Source: a phage. From it: 64,000 nt of DNA. Both the position numbers and the translations under genes were made by a program. The stretch is taken from sequence record PZ445446.1, one strand, 5' to 3'. The notes under the pieces were generated by a model that saw nothing but the letters and a program-made list of their open reading frames with translations, had not been told where the DNA came from and did no database searches. This document shows, one piece after another, positions 13,651 to 61,966 of the stretch. Positions within the stretch are counted from its first letter, which is position 1, and each line of letters opens with the position of its first letter.

Positions 13651-13851
13651 TTAGTAATACTCCCAACATGCCCCATCTTCAGACGGCTTGACGCGCTTAC
13701 CTTTATGGTCAACATAGGTATAGCCACAACCTTCACAAATAACAGGTGCTGCATAGCCTTCCTTCCACTGATCCTCAGTGATCAATCCTTTCAGATCTCC
13801 GCAGTCACGACCAAACAACTCTTCAGAACAGTCTTTACAAAAATCAGCCAT
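13651..13851 (-). CDS. small zinc-ribbon protein
   Basis: 66 aa with CxxC…CxxC pairs (CKDC…CEGC). Confidence 0.4.
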   Translation of the reverse strand: MADFCKDCSEELFGRDCGDLKGLITEDQWKEGYAAPVICEGCGYTYVDHKGKRVKPSEDGACWEYY

Positions 13852-57120: not shown

Positions 57121-57540
57121 ATGAACATTAAATCTAATAATCCGGCATATAGCTTTGATAACGCTTTTTGTCACGGTCCGGCGGCGAAAGGATTCGAAAT
57201 CGATGGTAAACTAATTATTGTCAATGTTGACGGGGAAGAGGTTGCAGTATATCCGGTGGCAGACGTAAAAAGCCGTTTACAATGCCGCATGGATGTTACC
57301 GCCTATCAGCTTGATCCGGTCCGCATAGTTGCCCTGGTCCTGGAAGAAGAAATTAAAGCCATGCACCATAGCAACAGATTTATTGGTGACGCGCAGGATA
57401 ATATGAAAGTATGCCGCCATAAAGTTAATGAAGTGCTTAAAGAGTACGGCTATAAAGATCTTATGATCAAACGTGAGGAAAAATTCCGCTACCGTAACGA
57501 CCTGGCAAATCGGATTTTTGAAATATACGAATCATTATAA
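57121..57540 (+). CDS. hypothetical protein
   Basis: 139 aa; AAGAGG RBS after TTGACA-N17-TATATT promoter; strong terminator follows. Confidence 0.5.
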   Translation: MNIKSNNPAYSFDNAFCHGPAAKGFEIDGKLIIVNVDGEEVAVYPVADVKSRLQCRMDVTAYQLDPVRIVALVLEEEIKAMHHSNRFIGDAQDNMKVCRHKVNEVLKEYGYKDLMIKREEKFRYRNDLANRIFEIYESL

Positions 57541-57557
57541 TTTTTTAACTGAATTAT

Positions 57558-57586
57558 CAAGGGGCTTAGGCCCCTTTCTTTTTGTC
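57558..57586 (+). terminator. intrinsic terminator ending rightward small-gene module
   Basis: AAGGGGC-ttag-GCCCCTT + TCTTTTTG after stop 57540. Confidence 0.7.
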
Positions 57587-58200
57587 TGCTCTTCTCCTAC
57601 CATAAACGGCCCTACCTGGCAAGTGGAATAATTGACTAGCCATCAATCCCACATACTGTACAAATATACATGGAAAATAACTATTGCATAATTTTTCATT
57701 GTGTGGTAGCAAGTCCATTTTTACCCGTTTTCTCTCCCAAAAGTGCACGTAATGCCGCTATTGCACAAATTTTAACCTGATGCACATCTCCAATATCTTG
57801 TCAACAACTAAAAATCTTTATAAGTCATACACTTACACAGCATCGAAAGCGTGTTCTACGCGAAAAATCGAGTATAACTATAGCCGCCAGATCTCAGAAT
57901 TCACGTACGCACGCCATTCTATAGCCTGCAAAGTATTTATTCCAACCACAGAATAACGGAATAGTCAATACCTGCATAAAATAATTATTCGTGTAAACTG
58001 CATAACATAAATCAGCTCAGGTGTCAACATTTTTCGTAAACAGTCCGAAATTATCACGATGAGCTATCATAAACAGAGAAATATTTAGTCGTCTAATGTT
58101 TACTGTACATTACTATACTGACTGGAATCATTAGATGACTAAGAGAAAGATAAGAAATAATTAATAATGTAATTATTTTACCTGTAACAATAAGGCAACT

Positions 58201-58494
58201 ATGCAAACGAATGGCATGGCGCGACGGAGTCGCGACATAATATAAAAGCAGTAACCATCACCCCCGTGATAGTTTGTCTGCAAACTATTAATCAGATCAT
58301 AGTTGCCTTGTATTTAGTTAATCATGACATAACAAGCAAGGCAACTATAGATCTTCTAATAGTTGCCCTGCTTTTATATTATGTCATAGGAACGCCCGAA
58401 GGGGTGACCTAGTCACCTGGTATAGCCAGCGAAAGATTATTAACTTGTCGATTGTTATCTTGTTAATTGTTTTCATGCAAACGAATGGCATGGC
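58201..58494. repeat. 20-bp direct repeat pair (atgcaaacgaatggcatggc)
   Basis: Copies at 58201-58220 and 58475-58494. Confidence 0.6.
58234..58387. repeat. 18-bp perfect inverted repeat pair (gacataatataaaagcag / ctgcttttatattatgtc)
   Basis: Arms at 58234-58251 and 58370-58387. Confidence 0.6.
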
Positions 58495-60060
58495 TTATCA
58501 TCTATGCGTGAACAGTGAGGCATGCAATAGTAACAATTGTTATTGTATCCAGTGTGTTGAGTATGCCCAGTGTGTCACTATTATGTCATATTATGTCACA
58601 GTATGTCAGACAAGTTTTCCTCCTCTTTGTCAAGTGCTGCATGAAAAATTTACAAGCTTGTATGGTAGCATTTTTGCGGCCCTGTTTACATTCAGTGTTG
58701 TATGTATAATCCTTGTTGTGTGGGCGTTTAGACGTCTGGACGGTCAGAAGTTTGCAGGTCAATATCTAATCTATTGGCTGCTAACTATATCCCCCACAAA
58801 TAATAAGAAATATAATTGTTATGTGCGTAAACAGTAACCCATGTTATCAATCCCTGTATGTATCGCCAGTGGTGCGCATAATGGGTATTATGTTAAATTG
58901 CCCGTAATGATAACAGTTCTCACAATGATAGGTATTCTCATTCATCCACACAAAATAGGTTGCAAATGTTGTGCCACTGTGTGAACGGCCTGGCCTATTA
59001 ATTTCTCTCACTGCCTCGATATTTGAGAATTGTTATAAGAATGAGAAGTATTCCCATTCCGTCCGCCTGGCAGCACTCCAGTAGCTACCGGCTCCTGACA
59101 GGGCAGCACTCCTGTAGGTCAGGTCAAAATCGTGGTAGAATTGGGCCTGTTCAGATATTTCTGACTGACTCTTCAGATCTGTGTGGGAAAAGCCAACCTC
59201 TCCGGAGGGGCAGGGGAGGTCAATTAAAAAATTTACGTGGTGTATGAAGCGCTCTTCAGGTAAGGCATGTATTATGGGATGAAACCCTCTTCAGGCAATG
59301 ATATTTGTGGGTGTGATATTTGCTGGAAAGCCAGATATGACGGGACTCCCGGCGGGGATGGGGTAGTACAGACAGGGAAAATATGGGGATGTAGTTGGGT
59401 AAATTGATCAGACAGGTAGAGTATGGAATATGTTACAAGTATGTTAAATAGGGAGGATGAATATCTGCAGGATTTGTGTGTAAAATCAAAGACTTAAGTG
59501 GTGTTGTGGTATTTTCTATAAATAATTCAAGTTTAATAGGTAATATTTGTCTCTATCCACTTTGTGTGGTAAACAGATTCAGATGAAATTGGTTTACAAG
59601 TGTATACATAATATACAAATTAAAGATACAAGAAACCCCCCTCCCCCTTCGGCTACCATTCACCTTTTCCTCTGACTGGTACTTAAACACTTATTCAGAC
59701 TCTTCAGGTTATCACCCATATATCATATGGCAGTGACTGGTGTCCTCCGGCCCCTCTTTCGTCACCCGTCCGCTTCGCCATGCTAATGCCATAGCCAATG
59801 GTTCGGTTGTTCACTCTGTTCACTCAGGTGTATCTCCATACCCCTTCAAACCGAAGAGAACAGAAAACCCGAATTACTCGGTAAAAGAAAAGAGAAGAAC
59901 TTAATTTTATCAGGATAGGCAAGAATGTCAAGGCATGACTGCTCACTAAACAAGCAAACAGTCATGTGTGGAAGGTAAGTGATTGTGGTGGTGGGAAATT
60001 TAGTTGAAAGATGTGTTATAGGTGCGCTTCCAGCACTTTGGCCGGGCAGCTAATTGTGTG

Positions 60061-60276
60061 TCAGTCCAGCGGTTCATCCTCTACTTCACTGAAATCAATG
60101 TTCATGGTCTCCTCCCAACCATCGATCTCAGCACAAGAGTGGAGTTCTTTAGGGTTTACTCCCAAAGCCTCAGCAACAGAGTCTATATTTAACACCTCTG
60201 GCAGGTATGATTCATCGAATTCAAGGTAAATCAGGCCACGAGTGTTGTCAGCTCCACCAAATATCTCTATCTTCAT
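60061..60276 (-). CDS. small acidic protein
   Basis: 71 aa, Asp/Glu-rich; last gene of leftward array. Confidence 0.45.
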   Translation of the reverse strand: MKIEIFGGADNTRGLIYLEFDESYLPEVLNIDSVAEALGVNPKELHSCAEIDGWEETMNIDFSEVEDEPLD

Positions 60277-60397
60277 GAAATCTCCTCTGGAAATGAGAGT
60301 GTGAACAGGGTTTTATACGTTCTAATGCACAGGAATTATACACGTTTGCCTCTTCAGGCCATGCTTTAGCATGAGGAACCTGTGTGGGCTCGGTGCT

Positions 60398-60610
60398 TCA
60401 TAGTCTACCACCTCTGAACTCTTCGTGCTCAGGCATAATAGAGAACCAGATATCTACGATGTCCTCCCACGTCAGGTCATCAGCCTCAGGATCTGTCTGG
60501 GACGAAGATGAAGAGTCCTCAGAATCTAAGTTTTCCTCTTTAACTGGCTCATCCAAGGGACATATGGTCACTCCTTCGGATGTCTCTTCAGATGCATGTG
60601 TGTTGATCAT
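60398..60610 (-). CDS. small acidic Ser-rich protein
   Basis: 70 aa; poly-Ser and D/E-rich. Confidence 0.45.
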   Translation of the reverse strand: MINTHASEETSEGVTICPLDEPVKEENLDSEDSSSSSQTDPEADDLTWEDIVDIWFSIMPEHEEFRGGRL

Positions 60611-60708
60611 GTTCCCCCCGTGAGTATTCCGGCAACAGCCGCTATGGAAGTAATGATCATCAGGATCACCACTAAAACTTCAGACAATGTTCTCATTGTA
60701 TATTCCAT
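60607..60708 (-). CDS. small membrane peptide (33 aa, uncertain)
   Basis: Hydrophobic ORF whose TGA overlaps the ATG of the next gene (ATGA); GGAGA upstream; minus-strand promoter just upstream. Confidence 0.3.
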   Translation of the reverse strand: MEYTMRTLSEVLVVILMIITSIAAVAGILTGGT

Positions 60709-61660: not shown

Positions 61661-61966
61661 TTATTCTACAGAGCGTTTGAACAGAATGTCTGCCTCAGAC
61701 ATGTGCTCAACCTCTTCTTCGATTTTAGCGCGACGTTTTTCAGCCTCATAGCGAATATCGAACTCGGTAGCCACCAGAGATTTGATGAATTTAGGAGAAT
61801 ACAGGTGATCCTGCTTCTCAACGAGAATGATATCCTTAATGGCATCTTTCAGATCTTTAATCTGAAGTTGGAGTTCTACCAGTTCTTCGATTGTTTTGCG
61901 AAGGCGATCACGCTCTGCAGTGTCAGAAGGAAGAGAGGTGAACAGTTCAACTTTAGATTTAGCCAT
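61661..61966 (-). CDS. hypothetical coiled-coil protein
   Basis: 101 aa, charged heptad-like sequence. Confidence 0.45.
   Translation of the reverse strand: MAKSKVELFTSLPSDTAERDRLRKTIEELVELQLQIKDLKDAIKDIILVEKQDHLYSPKFIKSLVATEFDIRYEAEKRRAKIEEEVEHMSEADILFKRSVE

Follow-up and report, generated by a model that had tools for sequence, protein, structure and literature searches.

A conserved, strand-specific 9-mer outside the direct terminal repeat of rV5-like coliphages: candidate binding sites for a terminus-recognising protein

The 64,000-nucleotide (nt) stretch of phage DNA deposited as PZ445446.1 (the window, meaning the whole stretch, to which all coordinates and strands refer) contains, in a long interval between genes, a set of copies of the 9-mer CTCTTCAGG. 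About 120 records of Vequintavirus (rV5-like) coliphages match the 3 kb around the motif region at 93-96% identity, among them rV5, RudolfGeigy (Bas52), navn and Shigella phage CM1, and judged by these matches the window is an rV5-like coliphage (Vequintavirus). Its plus strand genes stop at 57540 and its minus strand genes at 60061, leaving a gap of ~2.5 kb; the motif copies therefore sit between convergent gene blocks. The equivalent part of rV5, 104013-106618, is a 2.6-kb non-coding box with no observable open reading frames (ORFs) (PMC3606486), and no convincing ORF was found in the window either, so that the motif DNA is indeed gene-free, as a preliminary description of this DNA had said. 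Small protein genes within 59100-60060 were considered and rejected: the only ORFs there are short, lack a ribosome-binding site and run across indel-variable DNA. The rV5 authors expected bidirectional terminators in the box and did not find them, reported no promoter in it, argued against a reprogramming of RNA polymerase of the T4 type, and first described the genome as circularly permuted (PMC3606486).

The window holds ten matches to CTCTTCAGR, against 1.10 +/- 1.08 expected from 100 dinucleotide-preserving shuffles, none of which gave more than 4. On the plus strand, six of the ten matches fall inside 59169-60592. The four plus strand copies that had been listed earlier (59169, 59252, 59287 and 59700) are exact matches, and a conserved fifth, at 60350, had been missed:

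59169-59177, plus strand: copy A, CTCTTCAGA in the window; exact match, starting 102 bp beyond the right boundary of the direct terminal repeat (DTR)
59252-59260, plus strand: copy B, CTCTTCAGG; forms with copy C a 35-bp imperfect tandem duplication, of which it is the first unit
59287-59295, plus strand: copy C, CTCTTCAGG; overlaps the -35 of a minus strand promoter-like site, 59298..59271
59700-59708, plus strand: copy D, CTCTTCAGG; within a nearly invariant block, itself invariant in 18/18 sequences
60350-60358, plus strand: copy E; intergenic, between two minus strand genes and upstream of the last one, invariant in 18/18 sequences
60584-60592, plus strand: sixth match, CTCTTCAGA; inside a minus strand coding sequence (CDS) of 70 amino acids, where it encodes Ser-Glu-Glu

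The final A of copy A is peculiar to the window, 16 of 18 relatives having CTCTTCAGG, with G. The sixth match lies in a CDS and varies (CTCTTTAGG or CTCTTTAGA in 4 of 18 sequences), so it was left out of the motif set, to which it probably does not belong; the remaining window matches, at 13819, 19927, 29919 and 43248, read CCT/TCT GAA GAG on one strand and are probably inside CDSs. Copies A to E are spaced 83, 35, 413 and 650 bp from start to start. Strand bias is marked across 59100-60620, where TTCAGR occurs nine times on the plus strand and once on the minus strand, and TGTGKG ten times on the plus strand and never on the minus strand, about one being expected.

What places these copies is the position of the genome ends. 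Several GenBank records are linearised within the gap: that of vB_EcoM_YN3 has window 59067 as its first base, reading downward, and 58609 as its last, and therefore has a 459-bp repeat at both record ends, while the annotation of vB_EcoM_Gotham gives 459-bp repeat_regions at both ends that map exactly to 59067->58609. Terminal repeats of 459 bp are found in the literature (PMC7471380), as are terminal redundancies of 458 bp in EdH4 and HdK5 (PMC6563267). From the record ends of YN3 and Gotham and the published repeats, we take the DTR to be 58609-59067 and the virion orientation to be the reverse complement of the window. (Many GenBank records of these phages are opened elsewhere or lack the second DTR copy.)

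58609-59067, no strand: DTR of 459 bp, the physical genome ends, by record ends, Gotham annotation and literature
59068-59130, no strand: indel-rich spacer directly outside the DTR, seen in the alignment; starts with conserved TGGCAGCA and holds GGCAGCACTCC direct repeats
58579-58608, plus strand: three tandem 10-bp units, TATTATGTCA / TATTATGTCA / AGTATGTCA, ending exactly at the left DTR boundary 58608/58609

Copies A to E start 102, 185, 220, 633 and 1283 bp outside the right DTR boundary; in virion orientation they lie just upstream of the right-end repeat, and the Gotham copies begin upstream of the right DTR at distances of 109, 191, 226 and 639 bp. The right boundary, ...CGTCCGCC/TGGCAGCA... 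(the slash marking the end of the repeat), is kept among isolates; within the spacer that follows, isolates differ by up to ~80 bp via repeat-mediated indels. On the opposite DTR flank, the tandem TATTATGTCA units would be the counterpart repeat. Indel hot spots among isolates are 59068-59130, about 59215, 58390-58600 and 59530-59620, the first of which opens at the first base beyond the DTR and involves GGCAGCACTCC / CTCCTGTAGGTC direct repeats. The units at 58579-58608 also give a minus strand promoter-like CTGACA-18-CATAAT with TG (10/12) at 58609..58580.

The confinement of the motif to this locus emerges from the complete rV5 genome (138 kb), which was searched for exact CTCTTCAGG, reading frames being computed from annotated start coordinates. 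Five of its nine copies lie within 103717-104904 (1.2 kb) on one strand and correspond to window copies E, D, C, B and A; the other four are inside ORFs 104, 106, 112 and 236, each as an in-frame CCT GAA GAG (Pro-Glu-Glu). By our own estimate, made before the shared orientation of the five was counted, five of nine random copies would fall in some 1.2-kb stretch of 138 kb with a probability of the order of 1e-6. Outside the terminal region, no gene of rV5, the late genes 27-81 included, has a copy upstream of it. The preliminary description had suggested promoters for a phage-modified RNA polymerase and proposed a genome-wide search for the 9-mer upstream of late genes; that search, run on rV5, finds none preceding a late gene, and the suggestion falls. 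A phage-specific promoter class of the T4 middle or late type is rejected along with it, the motif not recurring upstream of any gene class across the rV5 genome, and a tempting but wrong late-promoter candidate is thus removed from consideration. Confinement to one locus is required of a packaging site; transcription signals are not usually so restricted.

Conservation among close relatives was assessed in an alignment of the window with 15 other Vequintavirus genomes or contigs and end fragments of two more (18 sequences). Copies D and E are invariant, and A, B and C have two singleton variants each. Across A-E, 6 of 810 motif cells (0.7%) depart from the column majority, as against 158 of 4788 (3.3%) in the +/-30-bp flanks; all six motif differences are singletons, and the 9-mers are ~4.5-fold less variable than their flanks. 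Aligned cells are not phylogenetically independent, so no p-value is given. The motif is real and, by this comparison with its own flanks, under selection.

More distant relatives can be reached through the 139-amino-acid protein encoded left of the gap (57121-57540), which has homologues of 85-90% identity in phAPEC8-type phages and in A7_1 and LTH01, two unclassified Vequintavirinae; in each of the latter, as in phAPEC8-type phages, the gene is followed by a non-coding gap of its own. Nucleotide similarity to A7_1, LTH01 and phAPEC8-type phages ends with this gene, and neither blastn nor nhmmer could align the gap DNA of A7_1 and LTH01 to the Vequintavirus gap, bar one island. That island, the only one that profile searches of A7_1, LTH01 and phAPEC8 returned, reads GTGCGYATAA..GTATTATGTTAAAT and corresponds to window 58870-58899, inside the DTR; pairwise alignment also pairs the junction GCC/TGGCAGCA, which by this similarity would be the DTR boundary of A7_1 and LTH01. 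In A7_1 all three CTCTTYAGR matches of a 10.4-kb locus are in the gap on the plus strand (6904, 7249 and 7406), at +99, +444 and +601 from the junction, where 0.34 were expected in the locus on both strands. LTH01 has three matches, two of them in the gap on the same strand, at +94 and +425 from the junction. The first copy is thus about equally far out in all three phages, ~95-100 bp from the presumed boundary of A7_1 and LTH01 and 102 bp from that of the window, with unrelated DNA in between. The piece at 58870-58899 (GTGCGCATAATGGGTATTATGTTAAAT) is also the most conserved part of the DTR, and it adjoins and slightly overlaps a 'repeat_region' annotated in navn (~window 58890-58925).

The Phapecoctavirus lineage has a DTR of 328 bp by the record ends of Mt1B1_P17, and CTCTTCAGG is absent from its terminal region (phAPEC8). 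Within ~260 bp outside the equivalent boundary it has instead the 8-mer TGCCATGA, three times exact and once as the variant CGCCATGA, all on one strand, a layout that fits lineage-specific recognition repeats. In phAPEC8 (our locus L146, 6351-6964) transcription of the genes beyond the DTR leads away from the repeat and not, as in the window, toward it; hence the two groups differ by a rearrangement of the terminal region, despite the common 139-amino-acid gene. The gene for a DsbA-like DNA-binding protein, at 61661-61966 in the window, stands in a different gene context in PVP-SE1 and KPP-1, so synteny is uninformative there. An IMG/VR search with the neighbouring 71-amino-acid protein returned three loci only, and an IMG/VR scan for paired motifs was dominated by coding P-E-E repeats and gave no information.

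The copies thus have the properties of terminus-flanking repeats: they occupy one locus beside the genome end as defined by experiment, on one strand and in one orientation, they are constrained, and they are retained in the diverged A7_1 and LTH01, all of which a DNA-binding protein that marks the concatemer junction would explain. We posit, with a probability of roughly 35%, that the CTCTTCAGG copies are candidate cis-acting, sequence-specific binding sites of a terminus-recognising protein, e.g., the small terminase. In replicating concatemers, a phage DNA-binding protein, most likely the small subunit of terminase or else an accessory factor for end processing, would occupy the same-orientation array of 9-mers; its binding would locate the concatemer junction and place cleavage at the GCC/TGGCAGCA boundary ~70-125 bp away, and the tandem TATTATGTCA units would act as the counterpart on the opposite flank. 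Both the identity of the binder and a purpose in packaging or end formation are what we infer from this arrangement.

Known packaging sites offer partial precedents. The cosB R sites of lambda, the pac hexamers of P1 and the pacL/pacR boxes of SPP1 are clustered short asymmetric repeats beside the terminase cut. They resemble the present case in having several short asymmetric copies at one locus near a cut, and differ in lying within about 50-300 bp of it, whereas two copies here are 0.6 and 1.3 kb away, and in serving cohesive ends or headful packaging rather than exact DTRs. A closer likeness is to T7 and T3. Dunn and Studier reportedly described, in 1983, short repeat arrays (SRL and SRR) that flank the T7 terminal repetition; there, as here, a short exact DTR (160 bp in T7, 459 bp here) has strand-specific short repeats on both outer flanks (CTCTTCAGG on one side and the tandem TATTATGTCA on the other), and a promoter is aimed at the junction from the right arm. 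The likeness is one of sequence layout alone: the sequences themselves are dissimilar, the CTCTTCAGG copies form a small, irregularly spaced set rather than a dense array, the polymerase transcribing toward the junction would be that of the host and not of the phage, and the present phage, a myovirus, has a gene set unrelated to theirs. In T3 and T7, packaging specificity maps within 5% of the termini, and pausing of RNA polymerase at the concatemer junction helps packaging start and maturation (PMC3276506).

Several observations weigh against sites of this kind. Copies D (633 bp) and E (1283 bp) are distant from the cut for a compact pac- or cos-type site; the spacings are irregular and not in helical phase; and single substitutions in A, B or C are tolerated by one isolate or another. 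Isolates also differ by ~80 bp in how far copy A lies from the boundary, so there is no fixed measuring distance. The promoter-like settings of copies C (9/12) and E are poorly explained, the boundary in A7_1 and LTH01 is one suggested by sequence similarity rather than by read ends, and the phAPEC8 TGCCATGA cluster lends weak support, its counts, with one mismatch allowed, being not above those of shuffles.

In literature searches, neither the motif nor its confinement to the terminal DNA nor the layout of the flanking repeats was found described, and no relevant transcriptomes came up. The non-coding box and the 459-bp repeats were known already; what is new is the motif at that locus, most likely a new example of cis repeats beside termini. 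The rV5-like phages are among the commonest coliphage isolates and are used in therapy cocktails, and no explanation of their 2.6-kb non-coding box has been available since the genome appeared in 2013. With the DTR located in that box there are concrete targets for end recognition and cutting, the 9-mer on one flank and the tandem 10-mers on the other, with a practical bearing on genome finishing and annotation, phage engineering and the assessment of transduction risk.

The main rival, somewhat less probable but still to be taken seriously, holds that the copies are minus strand sigma-70 promoter elements or operator sites of a local regulator, in which CCTGAAGAG, the minus strand form, coincides in part with the -35 or stands in for it. 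Transcription would begin ~25 bp downstream, by RNA polymerase alone or together with a phage factor at the 9-mer; copy E would drive the last gene and copy C short non-coding RNAs (ncRNAs) toward the terminal repeat, and the copies lacking a -10 would be regulator or roadblock sites. Copy C does overlap a minus strand TTGCCT-16-CATAAT (59298..59271), a 9/12 sigma-70 match, and ~40-75 nt past the start that it implies comes a GC-rich hairpin, with UUGGCUUUU after it. Copy E reads CCTGAAGAG-N9-(T/C)ATAAT on the minus strand, TATAAT in its perfect form, with the hexamer at 60340..60335, ~60 nt upstream of an ATG at 60276 that has a GGAG Shine-Dalgarno; this is a good -10, but its spacer to TGGCCT is 15 bp, where sigma-70 promoters have 16-18 bp. 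The E hexamer varies at its first base only (T/C) in 17 of 18 sequences, keeping A2 and T6, and three of the four variants of the C hexamer keep A2 and T6, one being a perfect TATAAT. The orientation of the motif also agrees with the direction in which the adjacent gene block is transcribed.

This reading accounts for C and E but not for A, B and D, for the A7_1 copies or for the absence of the motif elsewhere in the genome. No nearby spacing on the minus strand gives copies A, B and D a usable -10. A fixed promoter geometry is not seen either: only two of five copies, C (59287) and E (60350), have a -10-like hexamer downstream on that strand, at 10 and 9 bp respectively. The A7_1 copies, read by eye, are likewise all without a -10-like hexamer downstream on the minus strand, no copy precedes another gene in 138 kb, and the C7 variant loses A2 of the copy C hexamer. 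Copy E and its -10 are both kept in IMGVR_3300010279 despite a 46-bp insertion between them, and, as said above, the rV5 authors found no promoter here (PMC3606486). That insertion (contig L008, IMGVR_UViG_3300010279_000001), at window 60349/60350 and adjoining copy E, holds a GGTGAC..GTCACC hairpin and opens with motif-like CTCTTTCG, as if the motif had been duplicated or targeted.

The layout at C and E is reminiscent of T4 middle promoters, in which a 9-bp MotA box stands ~12 bp upstream of a sigma-70 -10: each is a 9-bp asymmetric element 9-10 bp before a -10-like hexamer, with no good -35. The likeness ends with the three copies that lack a -10 and with the absence of the motif elsewhere in the genome, and we know of no MotA/AsiA-type takeover in rV5-like phages. 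The earlier suggestion of a transcription-factor site survives in a looser form, that of a protein-binding site, close to the sites for a terminus-recognising protein preferred here. A sigma-32-type promoter (CTTGAA ... CCCCAT) was also rejected, its spacing being 3 bp too short and its fit confined to one copy. The boxA antitermination consensus of lambda and rrn is CGCTCTTTA, to which copy B on the plus strand (CGCTCTTCA) is identical at 8/9 positions and the other copies at 6-7/9. Transcription of the plus strand here would be antisense to the gene block, in which it differs from boxA, and a boxA/nut element was set aside: there is no boxB-like or common hairpin, and no plus strand promoter above 9/12 nearby.

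A further group of features bears on whether the motif acts as RNA:

59904-59931, minus strand: sigma-70 promoter-like site TTGACA-16-TAAAAT with upstream TG, 11/12; points toward the DTR and heads the invariant block
59640-60000, minus strand: nearly invariant block, mean majority frequency 0.97-1.00 per 30-nt bin in 16 genomes; holds copy D
59935-59972, minus strand: hairpin with a 13-bp stem, -15.7 kcal/mol, z = -3.4, no U-tract; after the last gene, abutting the promoter -35
59636-59647, plus strand: C-rich run CCCCCCTCCCCC, length-polymorphic among isolates

The C-rich run is the one noticed earlier, and its presence is confirmed. The flanking coding DNA has a majority frequency of about 0.92-0.96, below that of the block, and the block (~360 bp) shows neither an ORF nor an Rfam match nor a significant fold; a new ncRNA is one possibility for it, an element acting at the DNA level another. 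An explanation that we consider unlikely is that CCUGAAGAG is repeated in minus strand transcripts, made from the promoter at 59931..59904 or by read-through from the last gene, to be bound or processed by an RNA-binding protein or ribonuclease, or to serve as a module of a long ncRNA. The promoter is near consensus and conserved and is aimed through D, C, B and A, the 360 bp downstream of it are nearly invariant, and the strand that would be transcribed carries all five copies. The plus strand GC skew is +0.43 to +0.57 at 59200-59600, so that a minus strand transcript would be C-rich and G-poor and resemble a Rho-loading (rut) site, and a region of such composition looks built for transcription and then termination. 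(Several GGG/GGGG runs lie on the plus strand at 59345-59400.) On the left flank, a skew of -0.21 to -0.27 at 57500-57900 is a weaker mirror image for rightward transcription; from this composition, Rho may stop convergent transcription on both sides of the terminal repeat.

Structure gives this explanation little help. Rfam returned no gathering-score hit across 57500-60400 and, at E <= 10, four chance-level matches with none near the motif, hence no family for it even at that threshold. Fold z-scores for window sequences, including either strand of 59625-59897 and 59130-59420, run from -0.9 to +0.3 (-0.79, +0.28 and -0.87 for the minus strand stretches), the one exception being a short stretch that scores -2.35 in its rV5 version. 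In local folds the register of the motif stem differs among copies A, B/C and E, so the structural context changes copy by copy. The idea that the copies mark ncRNA boundaries, also raised in the preliminary description, finds no footing in these results. Close relatives are too similar, and distant ones unalignable, for an analysis of covariation. The window contains no Rfam family, and ARAGORN found no tRNA or tRNA remnant in it. Three RNA candidates were rejected: a hammerhead, suggested by a resemblance to CUGANGA, has no Rfam hit, and CUGAAGA is not followed by stem II and GAAA; a CsrA-type GGA sponge fails for want of GGA in the motif; and an sRNA of ~45 nt directly downstream of the strong promoter would have a weak hairpin (-4.5 kcal/mol).

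A composite of these elements, to which we give a low probability, is that the strong promoter at 59931..59904, the conserved 360-bp block and the CCTGAAGAG copies downstream form one unit. Host RNA polymerase would be driven to the junction, where the 9-mers, as DNA or in the nascent RNA, would recruit or pause the complex that hands the junction to terminase; if true, this would be a host-polymerase version of the transcription-coupled start of packaging in T7. In a variant included in the same low estimate, the transcript would be a new phage ncRNA whose repeated CCUGAAGAG modules titrate a protein.

Replication-origin iterons in the non-coding terminal region are improbable to a similar degree. 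GC-skew inflections do occur in the non-coding box, and the change in skew coincides with the switch in transcription direction, a coincidence that the rV5 authors had noted (PMC3606486). AT-rich stretches (GC 0.30) lie at 58000-58200 and 59400-59600, and the phage encodes a T7-type DNA polymerase and a primase-helicase. In T7-type replication systems, origins combine promoters with AT-rich DNA. The copies, however, are irregular and widely spaced and form no regular tandem array, and better candidates are the inverted copies of CAAGGCAACTAT at 58185-58376. That stretch, where the gap is richest in AT (GC about 0.30-0.35), contains four to five inverted or direct copies of CAAGGCAACTAT / ATAGTTGCC, with a perfect 18-nt inverted repeat at 58234-58251 / 58368-58385, and its layout resembles an operator or origin. 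The first-step-transfer injection-stop region of T5 is likewise a large, non-coding, repeat-rich DNA tied to a terminal repeat in a virulent coliphage; it differs in lying inside a 10-kb repeat and in controlling a two-step DNA entry, which nothing suggests for rV5-like phages. Inspection by eye for CRP, PurR, DnaA and IHF consensus sites found nothing convincing.

The least probable explanation is that the copies have no function and are relics of local duplication or chance, for which B and C (part of a 35-bp tandem duplication) and the frequent repeat-mediated indels of the DTR-adjacent spacer speak, and against which stand five 9/9 cores that persist although the flanks of A, D and E are dissimilar, the ~4.5-fold lower variability, the recurrence in A7_1 and LTH01 inside unalignable DNA, and a count that no shuffle reached.

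The TGGG-type partner that had been described beside the copies holds for three of them and fails for the fourth: TGTGGG follows copy A at +4 (59182), TATGGG copy B at +12 (59273) and TGTGGG copy C at +10 (59306), and copy D (59700) has no same-sense element, the inverse CCCATA standing at 59715 instead.

59182-59187, plus strand: TGTGGG partner of copy A; similar elements at 59273-59278 (TATGGG), 59306-59311 and 60383-60388

These TGGG-type elements belong to a strand-biased, G-rich theme (GATATTTGTGGG) common to A7_1, LTH01 and phAPEC8. A second locally enriched motif, GATATTTG(T)GGG, occurs at 59018, 59300 and 59315, and the TGGG partner seems to be a member of this family; (G)ATATTTTGGG / ATATTTGGG elements lie on the same strand near the terminal repeats of A7_1, LTH01 and phAPEC8. 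Finally, ~19 UNVERIFIED and unannotated 'Campylobacter phage' records share 89-96% identity with these coliphages, which probably reflects host mis-assignment or contamination in the deposits.

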